DNA from: Deltaproteobacteria bacterium | Lineage (GTDB): Bacteria; Desulfobacterota; Desulfobacteria; Desulfobacterales; ETH-SRB1 | DNA: 27,065 nucleotides | Direction of reading: 5' to 3' | Assembly: GCA_019309665.1 (NCBI GenBank) | Contig: JAFDFV010000001.1 | Coordinates: 1-27,065, forward strand | In this document: positions 15,219 through 20,721 of the stretch, in pieces | Layout of the letters: the number at the start of each line of letters is the position of its first letter | How positions within the stretch are numbered: position 1 is the first letter of the stretch | Notes under the pieces: generated by a model | What the model was told of the DNA's origin: nothing | Database searches by the model: none | Seen by the model: only the letters and a program-made list of their open reading frames with translations | Position numbers and translations under genes: made by a program

Positions 15219-15839
15219 TTATGAAAGGCCTGGAATAGTCAGGACCTGACCTGATTTCAGTATTATGGGATTATCAATACCATTGAAATCCGCTATTAGA
15301 CGCCACTTTCCCGGATCTTTATACTCTTCGCCGGCAATCCCACTTAACGTATCGCCCTCTTTCACGACCCGATAAGTCGTATAATCAGAGGCGTGCAAGG
15401 GGCTGCGCCGTGTTTCAATCTCCGGAGCATTATATTCTTTGAAAATAACGCTTAAAGTTGTACGGACCGGTATTCCACTCTCTAAAAACATGGTGAATCT
15501 CTGACTAACATTTTCAAGGACACAAGTGAATTGCACCTTGCTCCAGCTAAAAAGGCAGACAGGGGGAGCATGGGTAGAAGGTTCAATATCCAATAGACCT
15601 ACTATCTTGTTAGTATACTCGCGAACATCGGTTCTTTTTTCATACGTATCAAAGAAAAGTTCCGTGGAAAGTCTTTTAATATCTCCTCTGACAAATTGCA
15701 AAAAAGGAGAGCCTGTTCCCGGAATTCCGACTTCAGCGAAGCGATTACTCTTTTCAAAAGTATATTCTGCAGGATTGAAGAGTACCTCTATCTTATCTCC
15801 CGTAACGGTATTGACAATAAATGCTTTTTCTAATCCCAT
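15219..15839 (-). CDS. CIS tube-initiator protein with C-terminal LysM (Afp7-like)
   Basis: VLFNPAEY, ELFFDTYE, HAPPVCLFSW and FTMFLESGIPVR motifs; LysM VVKEGDTLSGIA...WRLIADFNGIDNP. Confidence 0.93.
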   Translation of the reverse strand: MGLEKAFIVNTVTGDKIEVLFNPAEYTFEKSNRFAEVGIPGTGSPFLQFVRGDIKRLSTELFFDTYEKRTDVREYTNKIVGLLDIEPSTHAPPVCLFSWSKVQFTCVLENVSQRFTMFLESGIPVRTTLSVIFKEYNAPEIETRRSPLHASDYTTYRVVKEGDTLSGIAGEEYKDPGKWRLIADFNGIDNPIILKSGQVLTIPGLS

Positions 15840-15847
15840 TATACTCC

Positions 15848-16936
15848 TTATTCTCTTTCCTTTTCTATTCTGAGACGATTTTCTATTATATCATAGACCC
15901 TGTCGGCTATAAGCTCATAATCTACTAAATGTTGAGCCGGATCGGTTAAGCCGGAGGGCTCAAAACCGATTGGATAACTCTTGACATCCTTTCTTGAGTT
16001 TGTATTTTCTTTGACTCTCATAACTTTCAATGACCGACTTGAATTATGATGCCTATCAAGGAAAATAAGCTGCGAGGAAAAGGAAGCATGTTCATCACTC
16101 AAAGCATCTTTTTTCATCCTGGTATGTTGAGTATCAATCATAGGGATAAACTTATGCGTCCGCAGGGAAGACCTTCCGAGGTGAAGGATTGGTTGCGCCT
16201 CTCTATCGCCATTGATAACCGTATTGTCAGAGAAAAACATTGGTTTTCTACTTTGTGGTTTTAATAATGAGAAAAATATATCGGTTGCGACAGGAAAAGG
16301 TTGTGGAGTTACGGTATCGGCCACCTTGCTCTCCTGAAGTGCAGGAAAGGGCATATGATCAAGAAGAGCAAGCCTTTTGGGTGTAGTCAGGTCGAATTTG
16401 CCGCTGCCAAAAAAAATTTCTTTTCTTGTAGTAAAGATTTCAGATTTTGCCGTTTTTACTGCTGAAAAAGTTTCTGAATTTGAATCTAAATGTATACGAT
16501 CTTGCTTAAACTTAAATCCTTTATAAAATAATGATTCCATAAATGCAGGAATATACTTGTGTTTGTATATGGGCAAGAAGCTTTTAATTAAGTTTGCTGA
16601 TCCACCAGAAATTGCTTTTCTTTTTGTTTCAAAAAGTAATCCTTTTACTTGACCTTCAACAGATGGACATGCGGAGGGCTTTTCTTCACTATTTAGACCT
16701 TTCTCCATAGATAAGGTATTAATCAAAGGTTGAATAAGATAGGTCATCTCAACTTCCGGCAGATTCAACATTTCGGCCCCGGGAGATCTGAACATCCTTA
16801 GGCCAAAATAGGACTCCAGAAAACCAAGTGGATTGGCTCCTAAAGGCCTAAGATAGTTCTTTAGAATATCTTTGTGAAAATTTATTAATCTCTTGTTCAG
16901 CCTCCCGATACAAGAGAGATATCCTTCATTAAGCAT
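15848..16936 (-). CDS. Hypothetical eCIS protein with a degenerate DUF4157-like segment and a conserved-looking C-terminal helix
   Basis: ATG 16936 lies 1 nt after the tube-2 stop. Internal AFMESLF...RIHLDS...FTTRKEIFFGSGKFD...LALLDH; C-terminal ELIADRVYDIIENRLRIEKERE. Confidence 0.6.
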   Translation of the reverse strand: MLNEGYLSCIGRLNKRLINFHKDILKNYLRPLGANPLGFLESYFGLRMFRSPGAEMLNLPEVEMTYLIQPLINTLSMEKGLNSEEKPSACPSVEGQVKGLLFETKRKAISGGSANLIKSFLPIYKHKYIPAFMESLFYKGFKFKQDRIHLDSNSETFSAVKTAKSEIFTTRKEIFFGSGKFDLTTPKRLALLDHMPFPALQESKVADTVTPQPFPVATDIFFSLLKPQSRKPMFFSDNTVINGDREAQPILHLGRSSLRTHKFIPMIDTQHTRMKKDALSDEHASFSSQLIFLDRHHNSSRSLKVMRVKENTNSRKDVKSYPIGFEPSGLTDPAQHLVDYELIADRVYDIIENRLRIEKERE

Positions 16937-16937
16937 T

Positions 16938-17372
16938 TTAAAGCCTTTCGATTCCTTCATGGGCAATCTCTAGAACTTCGATAGCCACCTCATTGCCATT
17001 GGCCTTAAAATTTGGCCCTTTCCATTTGCAAGGCCAACCATCTTTGAAATTCCATCGCGCATTTTCCTCTCCAGTCTCATTAAGAAGTATAATGGAGCCG
17101 GATCTGCGCTCAACCTTTCCTGCGACAGCCTTATTTTGCCACTGCCACAGTTCAACTGAATCAGTGACCCCTCGTTTGAGAATGATATTGGAGTATTTTG
17201 TTTGGGTTGGTAATTTATGGATATAGGCATTCACTCCTCCTTCCTTGTATTCAAAGACCTCTGTTTCTATGTCCAGACCACTTACTTCAGAAAATCCGGC
17301 TTCTATCATTCCATTGATCTCTACCAGGAAGTTAAAGTTTACATAAGGATCACGCCTTTTCCCAGGCACCAT
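16938..17372 (-). CDS. Tail tube protein 2 (T4 gp19-like, Afp1/5)
   Basis: DPYVNFNFLVEI, GFSEVSGL, NIILKRGVT, WPCKWKGP and IEVLEIAHEG motifs; RBS before ATG 17372. Confidence 0.95.
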   Translation of the reverse strand: MVPGKRRDPYVNFNFLVEINGMIEAGFSEVSGLDIETEVFEYKEGGVNAYIHKLPTQTKYSNIILKRGVTDSVELWQWQNKAVAGKVERRSGSIILLNETGEENARWNFKDGWPCKWKGPNFKANGNEVAIEVLEIAHEGIERL

Positions 17373-17392
17373 TTCCTTGCTCCTTAGCAATT

Positions 17393-17563
17393 TCAGTTTT
17401 TAATTGAGGCATTTATCTTCTTATTAATCTTAGATATCTCCTCTACCCACCTGCACCTTTCTTGATGAGGCAAGTCCATTATCTCCTCATTTCCCCAGTG
17501 AAAATGATAGGCAATAAAGGCTATCTCCTCGTAGAGCCGGTCGAGGGGATAGCCAACTATTCC
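17393..17563 (-). CDS. DUF6760-like ORF without a start codon; probable -1 frameshift extension of the tail assembly chaperone (lambda gpT analogue)
   Basis: The -1 frame reads GIVGYPLDRLYEEIAFIAYHFHWGNEEIMDLPHQERCRWVEEISKINKKINASIKN*. There is no ATG/GTG/TTG between the upstream in-frame TAA and the conserved motif. Not in the ORF track. Confidence 0.8.
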   Translation of the reverse strand, partial: GIVGYPLDRLYEEIAFIAYHFHWGNEEIMDLPHQERCRWVEEISKINKKINASIKN

Positions 17564-17584
17564 CCCTGGTTCAAACTGACCTCC
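17519..17584 (-). promoter_or_regulatory. Putative programmed -1 ribosomal frameshift signal
   Basis: Minus strand: SD-like GGAGGT (17584-17579), 12-nt spacer, slippery GGGGGAA (17566-17560), 5-nt spacer, then stem-loop GGCTATC-C-CCTCG-N10-CGAGG-A-GATAGCC (17554-17519). Confidence 0.75.
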
Positions 17585-17919
17585 ACTTGACCGTTACAAT
17601 GGGGACACTTTGTTGTGAGGGTTAATGATCCCCCTCCGTTTATTCTCCGGTAGAACTCCTGAAGATATGTCAGATCTTCCACAAAGAGTCCCTCAATAAT
17701 CCTTGGATTAATATCCTCTATGGTTCCAAGTTTGGTAATCACCCTTGAAAGGAGAATAATTGTCAAATAGGCTGGGTTGTTCTGAACACGAGGATCTTTC
17801 AGGGGCAAAATCTCATCAGCCGCATTAGCCAGACGCAGAATACCCTCTTTGTAAAGATTGCCTTCCTTATCAACATAACCTTTTGGCAGAACAAACTCAT
17901 ATTCTGTCTGGATAACCAT
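17557..17919 (-). CDS. Tail assembly chaperone (lambda gpG analogue)
   Basis: TEYEFVLPKGYVD.EG.L...G.LRLA.AADEI.PL.DPRV..NPAYL..ILLSRVI motif, C-terminal CPHC; directly follows tube 1. Confidence 0.88.
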   Translation of the reverse strand: MVIQTEYEFVLPKGYVDKEGNLYKEGILRLANAADEILPLKDPRVQNNPAYLTIILLSRVITKLGTIEDINPRIIEGLFVEDLTYLQEFYRRINGGGSLTLTTKCPHCNGQVEVSLNQGE

Positions 17920-17937
17920 ATTACCTCCGGTTTACTT

Positions 17938-18381
17938 TTACTGGGTTCTCTTCATCCCTTCGTGAGCAATCTCCAATGTTTCTATAGCAATCTCATTTCC
18001 GGTAGCATTAAGGTCCGGAGCATCGTATCTGGTTGGCCATGCTTGTGAAAATTCCCAGCGTGTAACCGAATTAGCTTCATCATTCAGAACTACAACAGCC
18101 ATATTTTTTCTGGCATCTTTTATTTTTCCATCTTCTACATCCTTTCGCCAGTTATAAAGGTCTAGCGAATCAGTAATTCCCCATTTCAGAGTAACATTTC
18201 CATATTTTATAAGACCTGGGAGTTTTCTTACCGTAATCGCTTCGTTACCCTCCCTGTACTCAATGGGATCTTGCGCAGTATCAGGGATTGTCACCTCCCG
18301 AAATCCGGCCTGAGTAATCCCATCGATCTCAACCAGAAACCTGAAATTTTGATATGGATCTTTTCTTTTTCCAGCAGGCAT
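17938..18381 (-). CDS. Tail tube protein 1 (T4 gp19-like, Afp1/5)
   Basis: DPYQNFRFLVEIDG, YREG, RKLPGL.KYGNVTLKWG and IETLEIAHEG motifs; RBS agggagg before ATG 18381. Confidence 0.96.
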   Translation of the reverse strand: MPAGKRKDPYQNFRFLVEIDGITQAGFREVTIPDTAQDPIEYREGNEAITVRKLPGLIKYGNVTLKWGITDSLDLYNWRKDVEDGKIKDARKNMAVVVLNDEANSVTRWEFSQAWPTRYDAPDLNATGNEIAIETLEIAHEGMKRTQ

Positions 18382-18417
18382 AATCAACCTCCCTATTTAA
18401 TAATTTAAACATTAATT

Positions 18418-20055
18418 TTATTCAGTTATTTCCGAGCCGCTGCGCCATTGAGCAATTCGGAAGATGACAAATTCCGCCGGTTTGACAGGAGCTATACCGA
18501 TAAGAATAATCAGCCTTCCATTATCTATGTCATCCGGAGTCATAGTAGTTTCATCGCATTTTACAAAGAAAGCCTCATCAGGTGTAGTCCCCATTAAAGC
18601 GCCATCCTTCCATACTCTGGTGAGGAAATCGGTGATGGTTTGCTTTACTCTTGCCCAAAGCCTCTGATCATTAGGCTCAAAGACCACCCACTGGGTTCCT
18701 TCTTCAATAGATTCTTCAATATACAAAAACAGCCGCCTGACATTTACATATTTCCATATGGGATCGCTCGAAATTGTCCTCGCTCCCCAAACCCTTATGC
18801 CACGTCCACGGAAAGCCCTGATACAATTTACTCCTCTTGGGTTTAGAATATCCTGTTCTCCCTTGGTTAGAGAAAATTGCAACCCAACTGCTCCTCTTAC
18901 TATTTCATTGGCCGGAGCTTTATACACGCCCCGCTCTGTGTCACTTCTGGCATAGACACCTGCAACATGTCCTCCTGGAGGTATAAGCTTTGGGCTGTTT
19001 GTAAGCGGATCCATTACCTTAATCCACGGATAATAAAAAGCGGCATATTTTGAATCCAAGGGCGGCATAAGTTTACTGACAAGACCAGCGTTTTGCCCGG
19101 CTTGAAGAACAGCAAAACAATCCTTCTTCAACTCACAATGTTTTACTATCTCATCGGTTAATCCCGTAAAACTATTCTCATTTGGAATACAAACCATAGA
19201 AATCTCATCGACCTCGGTAAATGCGCTAAGACCCGTGCGTTCTCCAGGATTAGCTCCGGCTTTCCCTTTATAAGCAGAAAGATCTGTTTTCGCGCCATCT
19301 GAACCGCCTTCAAGAAATTTTAATCCTCCGGTGGGGGGAGTAACCGCATCGCTTATTTTACTGACTTCTATAAGAGAAGAAATATTATTGATTCTTTTTT
19401 CATAATAGTCACTAGATGATATTTCAGGAGAAAGATTGTCGTAGACTTCGATAAGCGACGGTTCCCTGCGGTTTGAGTCTCGCTGTTTATTCGGATCAGT
19501 AGGATCGGCTACAGGCTCTGGAGGGGCGGCTTTCCAATAGATTACGATTAATTTGAAAAGTTTTGGATTAAGGGCGGAGAGACTGGCCTGTTCAATCTTT
19601 ATTGCCACACGATTTCCCCAGGCTCCATGGCCTATAGTCTTTATACTAAATGCTTGACCGGAATTTCCTTGAGGAGATTCCTCGTCTGGTGCGGTTTCTT
19701 TGAGAGATTCACTCGCAGCAGCCTTCGATGATTTTTTGGGCTTTTCCGATTTATCACTATGTGTCGGAATCTCAAGAATTGCAGGGCTGCTGTTTTTTCC
19801 GACAATCCTGCAAATAAAACACCTTTTGCCTCCGTTGCTGAAAAATCCTTCCACAGCATACGGAAGATACGAATCAGGGAGAAATCCTCCGTAAAGTCTT
19901 AGAAACTGTTCCAGACCGGCAATCAGCCTTGGCACTGTTGGCCCACGATCTGTCTCTCCAATAAATCCTGCCGTGCTTGTGCTCACCCCCTCAATAGGCT
20001 TTCCACCCATTTCAACTTCTTCGATATAAACCCCTGGCGCTAAATACTCAGGCAT
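18418..20055 (-). CDS. Contractile tail sheath protein (Afp2/3/4-like, single copy)
   Basis: YLAPGVYIEE, YAAFYYPW, KAPANE, LNPRGVNCIR, VWGART, YVNVRRL, WVVFEPND and PVKPAEFVIFRI motifs; RBS aaggagg. Confidence 0.97.
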   Translation of the reverse strand: MPEYLAPGVYIEEVEMGGKPIEGVSTSTAGFIGETDRGPTVPRLIAGLEQFLRLYGGFLPDSYLPYAVEGFFSNGGKRCFICRIVGKNSSPAILEIPTHSDKSEKPKKSSKAAASESLKETAPDEESPQGNSGQAFSIKTIGHGAWGNRVAIKIEQASLSALNPKLFKLIVIYWKAAPPEPVADPTDPNKQRDSNRREPSLIEVYDNLSPEISSSDYYEKRINNISSLIEVSKISDAVTPPTGGLKFLEGGSDGAKTDLSAYKGKAGANPGERTGLSAFTEVDEISMVCIPNENSFTGLTDEIVKHCELKKDCFAVLQAGQNAGLVSKLMPPLDSKYAAFYYPWIKVMDPLTNSPKLIPPGGHVAGVYARSDTERGVYKAPANEIVRGAVGLQFSLTKGEQDILNPRGVNCIRAFRGRGIRVWGARTISSDPIWKYVNVRRLFLYIEESIEEGTQWVVFEPNDQRLWARVKQTITDFLTRVWKDGALMGTTPDEAFFVKCDETTMTPDDIDNGRLIILIGIAPVKPAEFVIFRIAQWRSGSEITE

Positions 20056-20133: not shown

Positions 20134-20721
20134 TCATCCCTTATGCTTTATAGTAACTATCTTTTCCAGAACTACCGGCCCTTCAACTGTTTTAAACGGC
20201 TCTACACCGATGGTCACGCTGTAGTTAAGAGCAACCTTGGGTTTGCCGCCCATGGCTCGCCAGAACTCTCCAAGACTTTGCAATCGACCAGGCTGCAGGC
20301 TCAAGACAGGCAGAGGCAGATCCTGACCTTTCAAACTCCCATGAAGCATCCCGGCAGGAATAGTGGGGTAGCGCAAGAACACCTTCATCACCTCACCCAG
20401 CAGATGGTGCTCATCCATAACAGGATTGGGAGCGCTATCGCCGGGCCAGGCCGTAATCAGATAAGAGCAGTCCACCTGCACTGGTGGACGTTTTTTAGTA
20501 GCTGTACCGCTACTGTGCCGTTCAACGGTCCACTCGTTGCTCCGCAGATCCCGATTTTCCCGAACGTCGTAGAGAAAGATATCTATTGTCGGCAGAGTGA
20601 CCGAGGTAGGCGGAAACTGATCATCGGGCGTGGCAAAGCTTATGGTCACCTGTGAGACCAGCTCTGACGGGAGGCCTTGCTTGAGGAGTTCTTCTATTGT
20701 TTTGTCGAGGTCGTTGATCAT
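20134..20721 (-). CDS. DUF4255 / Pvc16-Afp16 cap (tail terminator) protein
   Basis: MINDLDKTIEELL, IDIFLYDVRENRDLR, VDCSYLITAW and FWRAMGGKPKVALNYSVT motifs; located immediately upstream of the sheath. Confidence 0.92.
   Translation of the reverse strand: MINDLDKTIEELLKQGLPSELVSQVTISFATPDDQFPPTSVTLPTIDIFLYDVRENRDLRSNEWTVERHSSGTATKKRPPVQVDCSYLITAWPGDSAPNPVMDEHHLLGEVMKVFLRYPTIPAGMLHGSLKGQDLPLPVLSLQPGRLQSLGEFWRAMGGKPKVALNYSVTIGVEPFKTVEGPVVLEKIVTIKHKG

Follow-up and report, generated by a model that had tools for sequence, protein, structure and literature searches.

We analysed a 27,065-nt stretch of DNA from a Deltaproteobacteria bacterium (JAFDFV010000001.1; hereafter the window, whose numbering is used throughout), in which two small overlapping reading frames of a contractile injection system operon very likely constitute a single recoded gene. 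Our model proposes that ribosomes undergo a programmed −1 slip at the heptamer G GGG GAA, with the aid of a hairpin, and that the gene would thereby yield a 120-aa form and a 175-aa form of its product. The slip signals, the −1 phase, their conservation and the covariation of the hairpin were observed across bacteria and archaea, and from these observations we infer the slipping itself, its efficiency and the role of the DUF6760 domain that the long form would carry. The claim rests on sequence comparison, the 175-aa fusion being a predicted product, and this comparison strongly supports a conserved −1 frameshift that would fuse a tail assembly chaperone homologue to DUF6760. Frameshifting of the same kind is already known in tailed phages; for contractile injection systems, our literature searches found no description of it.

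Gene order and the two reading frames

The injection-system genes of the region, and all of the features described below, are on the minus strand. A Pfam scan identified a Pvc16_N cap gene (20721..20134), after which comes a gene for a 545-aa protein (20055..18418) that we placed at the sheath position, not from a Pfam scan of its own sequence but from its location between the cap and tube genes and from the sheath Pfam matches of the equivalent genes in related loci. Tube protein 1, a member of the T4 gp19 family (17938..18387; PF06841, E = 4.7e-48), is encoded directly upstream of the 120-aa chaperone ORF (17919..17557), which was taken from the ORF list and its translation and includes the TAG stop codon at 17559..17557. 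It overlaps a −1 frame ORF without a start codon, open over 17593..17396 and ending with TGA at 17395..17393, whose translation matched DUF6760 in Pfam. Directly downstream from the DUF6760 ORF lies the gene for a second tube protein of the gp19 family (17390..16938; PF06841, E = 2.4e-49), the probable start of which is the ATG of MVPGKRRDPY. The chaperone gene comes after the first tube gene, and the second tube-family gene separates it from a gene for a 372-aa protein in the position of the tape measure (16966..15848). The latter assignment was made by position only; the protein is not recognizable as a tape measure, and its eCIS_core match was below threshold (E = 0.0023). The Pfam scan also identified a CIS_tube plus LysM protein (15839..15219). 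Two Phage_T4_gp19 genes, Pvc16_N and CIS_tube plus LysM, which identify a CIS/eCIS, are present in one operon, and no capsid genes were seen in this region. Cis1b, the second of the tube homologues in the Streptomyces CIS, is a tube initiator (PMC12237407).

The 120-aa protein matched PHROG 508, 'tail assembly chaperone' (E = 7e-5), and the same match was obtained for 21 of 21 aligned members of its family. A search for homologues returned about 8000 matches, some of which are named 'phage tail assembly protein' in the source databases, and nearly all of the best 120 of these were 119–123 aa long. Searches of Pfam and NCBIfam found no significant family for the chaperone; PF10109 (Phage_TAC_7) matched the family below threshold only (E = 0.028–0.14), and a profile search of PDB sequences gave no match. 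When a natural one-ORF fusion was compared by tblastn with 50,697 phage records, Bacillus phage BCD7 was the sole match, at 23% identity. In this phage, the sheath gene and two tube genes precede the homologue, and a very large gene follows it.

Structural comparison was carried out with an AlphaFold model of the natural one-ORF fusion P0133, which is 59% identical to the predicted product of the window (mean pLDDT 82). The model consists of an alpha/beta domain, a CxxC beta-hairpin, a low-confidence linker (residues 116–120) exactly at the junction, and a three-helix DUF6760 part with pLDDT >90. Foldseek searches with this model found phage BCD7 (5.8e-8), proteins named 'baseplate hub assembly protein, bacteriophage T4-like' (E = 3e-7), Mu FS-gp41 (E = 2e-3) and a 'tape measure chaperone'. 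FluMu gp41 was the only good Swiss-Prot match (probability 1.0, TM 0.49 by hit, rmsd 3.3 over 107 columns), and the search of the PDB gave only a weak match to 3klu, B. subtilis YqbN (probability 0.57). On the basis of this model, the chaperone domain of the fusion homologue is predicted to have the Mu gp41 fold.

The initial annotation of this DNA had read the end of the chaperone ORF as CAG GGG GAA TAG and had pointed to a protein-like −1 ORF with no start codon ahead of its motif. Both readings were confirmed by translation. The 3′ end of the chaperone ORF is AAC CAG GGG GAA TAG, and in the −1 frame the same region reads CCA GGG GGA ATA GTT GGC TAT CCC CTC GAC. The −1 frame sequence, which includes ...PGGIVGYPLDRLYEE..., matched Pfam DUF6760 (PF20546) with 65.3 bits against a cut-off of 27 (E = 5.2e-18; profile positions 8–53 of 89). 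No ATG, GTG or TTG lies ahead of the conserved GYPLD motif in the stretch that is open from 17593, and the sole such codon of the −1 ORF is an internal ATG deep within the DUF6760 domain. A slip at the heptamer would append 56 codons, beginning with GGA at 17563 and ending at 17393, to residues 1–119 of the chaperone. The predicted trans-frame fusion (17393..17919) would have 175 aa, with the junction ...SLNQGGIVGYPLDR, and the junction peptide is predicted to be ...NQGGIVGYPLDR; these product sizes, 120 and 175 aa, are those that had been proposed at the outset.

Slippery heptamers and reading phase in related loci

We compared the window with related loci from one genome per species, which gave 80 loci from bacteria and archaea, including Methanosarcina, Methanothrix, Halobacteria, Bathyarchaeota, cyanobacteria, Paenibacillus, Clostridia, Nitrospirota, Acidobacteriota, Myxococcota and others. 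A DUF6760 match was found directly 3′ of the chaperone in 79 of the 80; the remaining locus (L069), which is cut off by the contig end, has no DUF6760 match, and in one other (L025) the domain is truncated. DUF6760 was in the −1 phase relative to the chaperone in 78 of the 79 loci, the exception being a locus from Halococcaceae (L052) in which DUF6760 is a separate cistron with its own start and in another phase. Because an ATGA start/stop overlap also yields a −1 phase, starts and slip sites were checked explicitly; L045 has such an overlap and no heptamer.

An in-phase slippery heptamer was found within the stretch that is open in both frames in 75 of the 79 loci. GGGGGAA, the heptamer of the window (G GGG GAA in the zero-frame phase, 17566..17560), was the most frequent (40 loci), followed by GGGGGGG (12), GGGGGGA (10), AAATTTT (5, all Clostridia) and GGGGGAG (4), while GGGAAAA, GGGAAAT, TTTTTTG (Paenibacillus, L073) and CCCTTTC were found once each. 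The comparison of the junctions, a check that the initial annotation had suggested, showed conservation of both an in-phase heptamer and the phase. A run of 5–7 G residues was present in phase in 66 of the 79 loci. In two more loci, outside the 79 and selected for a Pro-Pro-Glu end of the chaperone, the heptamer is C CCC CCG. The distance between the heptamer and the GYPL motif is constant, and the zero-frame stop codon follows the heptamer directly, one codon later or 13 codons later (L023 and L024). Different canonical heptamers at slightly shifted places, yet always in phase, are the pattern expected of a selected frameshift and not of coupled initiation. Moreover, the recurrence of the phase, the in-phase heptamer and a hairpin in 75–78 of 79 loci is more than would be expected by chance.

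Strict X XXY YYZ sites account for many of the in-phase heptamers in these 75 loci. G GGG GAA departs from this pattern: the P-site tRNA would re-pair perfectly after the slip (GGG to GGG), and tRNA-Glu in the A site would need a G:U pair at the middle position of GGA. The conserved core G GGG G is compatible with either a P-site slip of tRNA-Gly followed by decoding of GGA, or a tandem slip that involves the tRNA-Glu G:U pair, an event that the PRFect authors discuss for the same motif in actinobacteriophage chaperone genes (PMC10885494). The codon preceding GGG was of 11 kinds, specifying 10 amino acids, and ended in G in all 66 G-run loci, compared with a background third-position G frequency of 0.31. 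The G run is constrained at the nucleotide level and not at the amino-acid level.

The principal alternative is that DUF6760 is produced as a separate small protein, either by initiation at the non-canonical ATA codon (17560) or by re-initiation after the TAG stop codon, and that no fusion is made. We consider this improbable. It would fit the finding that only a few nucleotides separate the zero-frame stop codon from the point where the conserved −1 sequence begins, and Pfam built the DUF6760 family from proteins annotated as separate genes. Clearly independent DUF6760 starts are present in L052 and L045, and a start codon (ATG, GTG or TTG) was found 2–4 codons before the Tyr of the GYPL motif in 18 of the 79 loci, such that independent initiation is possible in those. 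Ten of the 18 have ATG at the codon equivalent to ATA, in the form GGGGGAATGA, and all ten are among the 66 G-run loci; where this ATG is present, separate initiation may coexist with frameshifting.

The identity of the entry codon argues against separate initiation as the general mechanism. The first codon that would be read only in the −1 frame, following GGR, was ATA in 21 of the 66 G-run loci, ATG in 10, ATC in 10, ATT in 6, GTA in 5, GTT in 4, GTC in 3, GTG in 1 and another codon in 6. Thus, Ile, Met or Val was specified in 60 of the 66, with ATA, ATC or ATT accounting for 37 and GTA, GTT or GTC for 12, but a canonical start (ATG or GTG) was found in only 11 and was missing from 55. We therefore conclude that this position is selected as a translated hydrophobic residue. 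Separate initiation also leaves unexplained the G-ending codon before the run, the unrelated canonical heptamers (A AAT TTT, T TTT TTG, C CCC CCG and G GGA AAN) found in phase in loci that lack the G run, the fixed place of the heptamer where the stop codon is 13 codons downstream, and the hairpin that begins 5–6 nt after each kind of heptamer. We also considered the G run as a Shine-Dalgarno (SD) sequence for the codon at the ATA position. This possibility was rejected, since a spacing of only 1 nt is too close for the run to serve the entry codon.

The downstream hairpin and the upstream SD-like element

Programmed −1 frameshifting in the window would involve two further elements. A hairpin begins 5 nt 3′ of GGGGGAA, after the spacer TAGTT (17555..17559), which holds the zero-frame stop codon. 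Folding predicted 12 bp (7 + 5, with one C/A mismatch) over 17519..17554, with arms at 17554..17542 and 17531..17519 and a 10-nt loop at 17541..17532. The minimum free energy of the region was −27.2 kcal/mol (z = −3.15 relative to 200 shuffles). On the 5′ side, an SD-like sequence, GGAGGT (17579..17584), is situated exactly 12 nt upstream from the slip site and is a possible stimulator. The heptamer, the 12-bp hairpin and GGAGGT were all found where the initial annotation had placed them. Its description of them as three canonical stimulators was supported by the comparison for the heptamer and the hairpin; the SD-like element is present and enriched, but of the three signals it has the weakest claim to a stimulatory role.

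In an alignment of 64 loci, 95.6% of the cells of the 12-bp helix were paired. Both the hairpin and the SD-like element lie inside conserved coding sequence, and their conservation is inflated by this. Six of the 12 pairs changed on both sides, as in positions occupied by C-G in 36 loci, G-C in 14, U-G in 8 and U-A in 2; by C-G in 57 and U-A in 6; or by G-C in 48, A-U in 5 and G-U in 5. The covariation score of the helix was 0.228, compared with 0.138 for shuffled alignments, 0 of 500 of which reached the observed score, and 0.06–0.08 for slid controls. Several of the compensations combine a synonymous change in one arm (Tyr UAU/UAC or Leu CUC/CUG/CUU) with an amino-acid change in the other (Ile/Val or Glu/Gln/Lys), and arm-to-arm compensation of this type would not easily be explained by protein coding alone. 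In Clostridia, the A AAT TTT site is 15 nt further upstream and the common hairpin is not kept; these loci have a GCCGG/CCGGC hairpin of their own that begins 5–6 nt after A AAT TTT.

The predicted duplex energy of the SD-like element with the anti-SD sequence was −10.0 kcal/mol in the window, and the mean over the 66 loci was −7.0 kcal/mol as compared with −3.2 kcal/mol for control windows. Energies of −7 or stronger were obtained for 58% of the loci and 6.6% of the control windows. The Glu codon within the element was GAG in 34 cases and GAA in 7, compared with a GAG share of 55% in the rest of the genes (Fisher p = 2e-4). The element overlaps a conserved Glu-Val coding motif and this motif is missing from 25 of the 66 loci, and for these two reasons we rank the SD-like element below the other signals. 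Many of the loci are archaeal, and an SD effect in methanogens and haloarchaea is uncertain. We regard the element as no more than a plausible stimulator.

Another explanation for the extended protein would be that RNA polymerase stutters on the G run and inserts an extra G in some transcripts, which would then encode the fusion in one frame. The site is indeed a homopolymer of 5–7 G residues in most loci, and genomic variants with one G fewer or one G more are one-ORF fusions: the L082 run has four G residues and those of its nearest split relatives have five, and the L083 and L084 runs have eight and those of their relatives have seven. These natural counterparts of 174–177 aa align over 97–98% of the predicted fusion and have the junction ...GG[IV]xGYPL in common with it. 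Such proteins may mean that fusion of the two parts is tolerated, or they may result from homopolymer errors; since just one G of the run separates them from the split form, they are not independent proof of the fusion.

Runs of 5 G residues are short for polymerase slippage, however, and in lineages whose site is A AAT TTT or G GGA AAN, no homopolymer is long enough. In addition, a conserved hairpin 5–6 nt downstream is a mark of ribosomal and not of transcriptional slipping. Contigs from three cold-seep or marine-sediment metatranscriptomes, derived from strains that are about 99% identical, span both ORFs and have no base inserted into or deleted from the G run (word depth 40 to 1261), although slipped transcripts of low abundance may be hidden in assembled contigs, and DNA may be carried over into RNA libraries. 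These contigs indicate that the locus is present in RNA libraries and that the dominant RNA keeps the genomic frame. Taken together, these observations make polymerase stutter a highly improbable source of the long form. A broken gene, or an error in the assembly of the G run that splits a single ORF, is refuted as far as sequence data allow, and we give it next to no credence: sequencing errors are frequent in homopolymers, and single-ORF versions of the protein occur in databases in a few cases, but an independent sediment-metagenome DNA assembly is identical over 17369–17870, so the run of five G residues is not an assembly error, and the split −1 arrangement recurs across many phyla and assemblies with chaperones of tightly constrained length.

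Proposed mechanism and relation to phage tail assembly chaperones

According to the frameshift model, the majority of ribosomes would make the 120-aa chaperone homologue and terminate at the TAG codon. The 12-bp hairpin, which starts 5 nt downstream, would cause a minority to pause while tRNA-Gly occupies GGG and tRNA-Glu occupies GAA, and the SD-like sequence 12 nt upstream would perhaps add to the pause. Paused ribosomes would slip back one base on G GGG GAA and continue with GGA ATA GTT GGC TAT..., adding the 56-residue helical DUF6760 extension to give the 175-aa form. Read-through in the −1 frame is predicted to depend on GGGGGAA (mutated form GGCGGCGAA) and on a closed hairpin. If lambda G/GT and P2 E/E+E′ are a guide, the short and long forms would work together in a fixed ratio during assembly of the tube around the protein in the tape-measure position, and the DUF6760 extension would contact tube or baseplate subunits, as proposed by analogy with lambda gpT. 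We infer from the same phage precedents that the short form binds the tape measure, that the extension binds the tube protein and that both are needed in a set ratio.

Frameshifting of tail assembly chaperones is well established in long-tailed phages, those with contractile tails included (lambda G/GT, P2 E/E+E′ and Mu gp41). Levin, Hendrix and Casjens (1993) and Xu, Hendrix and Duda (2004, 2013) reportedly described lambda gpG/gpGT and the conserved frameshift of long-tailed phages. As in lambda, the two products here would share their N-terminus, the −1 slip would occur near the end of a small chaperone gene at a conserved in-phase heptamer, and the gene is located beside a tube gene and upstream of the tape-measure position. 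The lambda heptamer is G GGA AAG, and we know of no requirement for downstream structure in lambda; in contrast, the usual site here is G GGG GNN followed by a conserved hairpin. The locus also differs from lambda in that it belongs to a cellular injection system and not to a virus, and in that the DUF6760 extension has no detectable similarity to gpT. P2 gpE/gpE+E′ and Mu gp41/FS-gp41 resemble our system in serving contractile tails and, for Mu gp41, in the fold of the chaperone model. The T TTT TTG heptamer of the Paenibacillus locus is also that of P2. The chaperone family described here differs from the P2 and Mu proteins in having an added C-terminal CxxC beta-hairpin and another extension domain, and in matching PF10109 only below threshold. 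For T4-like phages, the likeness consists of the Foldseek neighbors and a gp19-family tube, whereas explicit frameshift signals are present here; a 2022 paper in Virology by Vladimirov, Gautam and Davidson reportedly proposes a mechanism other than frameshifting for the chaperones of T4-like phages.

In E. coli dnaX and in IS911, an SD-like sequence about 10–12 nt upstream, the slippery heptamer A AAA AAG and a stem-loop 5–6 nt downstream have the same three-element layout as the window. The differences are that the heptamer here is a G run, that the SD-like element is not universal, and that the same cassette is also found in methanogens and haloarchaea. The use of GGGGGAA by mycobacteriophage chaperones, which the initial annotation had mentioned, agrees with the literature: this heptamer is a recurrent 'five-two' motif in about a thousand annotated chaperone frameshifts of actinobacteriophages, and its tRNA-Glu is noted to be capable of re-pairing with GGA provided that G:U pairs are permitted (PMC10885494). 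Those frameshifts, too, were annotated by comparison and mostly not by experiment. The actinobacteriophage (SEA-PHAGES) genes share the non-canonical heptamer with the window, but they are siphophage genes with no detectable relation to the chaperone family described here.

The expectation that frameshifting is not generally described for eCIS also held. Full-text searches of the literature on contractile injection systems, eCIS and tailocins found no description of a chaperone frameshift and no paper naming DUF6760, and the Streptomyces CIS papers that we examined do not mention a chaperone frameshift. It had further been anticipated that the downstream part would be listed as a separate gene or missed. 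If the fusion is made, a widespread annotation error would be corrected: databases contain two distinct entries, 'phage tail assembly protein' and 'DUF6760 family protein', or overlook the second ORF (for example in L086 and L087).

The recoded gene pair would mean that cellular contractile injection systems retained a phage strategy by which the chaperone is produced as two forms at a fixed ratio. DUF6760 would gain a testable role, and in particle engineering, recoding or splitting the genes would alter the ratio of the forms. More broadly, we think it somewhat more likely than not that thousands of injection-system loci share one cassette, consisting of a G run or another heptamer and a hairpin 5–6 nt downstream, which makes bacterial as well as archaeal ribosomes shift to the −1 frame, and that DUF6760 is the long-sought 'T-like' arm of the CIS tail assembly chaperone, setting tube assembly through the ratio of short to long forms. 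To our knowledge, very few cases of −1 frameshifting in archaea are known. If the cassette operates in this way, methanogens and haloarchaea would supply numerous natural cases of −1 frameshifting, and DUF6760 would acquire a function.

Variation in the predicted slip site among related loci

At two of the related chaperone/DUF6760 loci, L086 (1066-1529) and L087 (1066-1264), the DUF6760 open reading frame had been missed by gene callers. The chaperone ended in Pro-Pro-Glu at both loci, and the in-phase heptamer was C CCC CCG. In the loci from Clostridia (L048, L070, L071, L072 and L077), the slip site was A AAT TTT and was shifted 15 nt further upstream. A distinct short hairpin, GCCGG/CCGGC, followed this heptamer after 5-6 nt, with an energy of -9 to -11 kcal/mol and with its 3′ arm formed by the Tyr-Pro-Ala codons.

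Two loci were exceptions to the arrangement. The DUF6760 sequence of L052 (1867-1950; Halococcaceae) was in another phase, constituting a separate cistron that had a GTG/ATG of its own as well as the SD-like sequence GAGGCGGAG. In L025 (1800-1960; Syntrophomonadaceae), the truncated DUF6760 stopped after GYPIDRI, and the run of G residues was interrupted.

Fused and doubled chaperone proteins

We found that the chaperone and DUF6760 were fused in a single open reading frame in L082 because the G run contained four rather than five G residues. Either a homopolymer error or a hard-wired fusion could account for this. The same MAG contig (1-4698) carried two adjacent sheath-tube sets.

Inspection of the database homologues revealed that P0014 (210 aa) was a single open reading frame containing the chaperone domain twice, in tandem. 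The lengths of P0123-P0132 (249-260 aa), together with their partial query coverage, indicated that these proteins probably contain a similar tandem pair. One source named one protein of this group, which includes P0014, 'phage FluMu protein Com'.

Neighboring genes and occurrence in metatranscriptomes

The second tube gene is listed with a TTG start that is probably incorrect (region 17372-17390, minus strand). Seven codons in, an ATG with AAGGAG ahead of it was present; initiation there gives an N-terminus, MVPGKRRDPY, that parallels the PAGKRKDPY sequence close to the beginning of the first tube protein. A 372-aa protein (15848-16966, minus strand) occupied the tape-measure position; its only match was a sub-threshold one to eCIS_core (PF13699; E 0.0023), and it did not have the look of a helical tape measure.

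Sequence ~99% identical to positions 16900-18400 was present in cold-seep and marine-sediment metatranscriptome assemblies, with word depth reaching 1261 at its peak in one metatranscriptome run. This identity and depth suggest that the tube-chaperone region is strongly expressed in situ.
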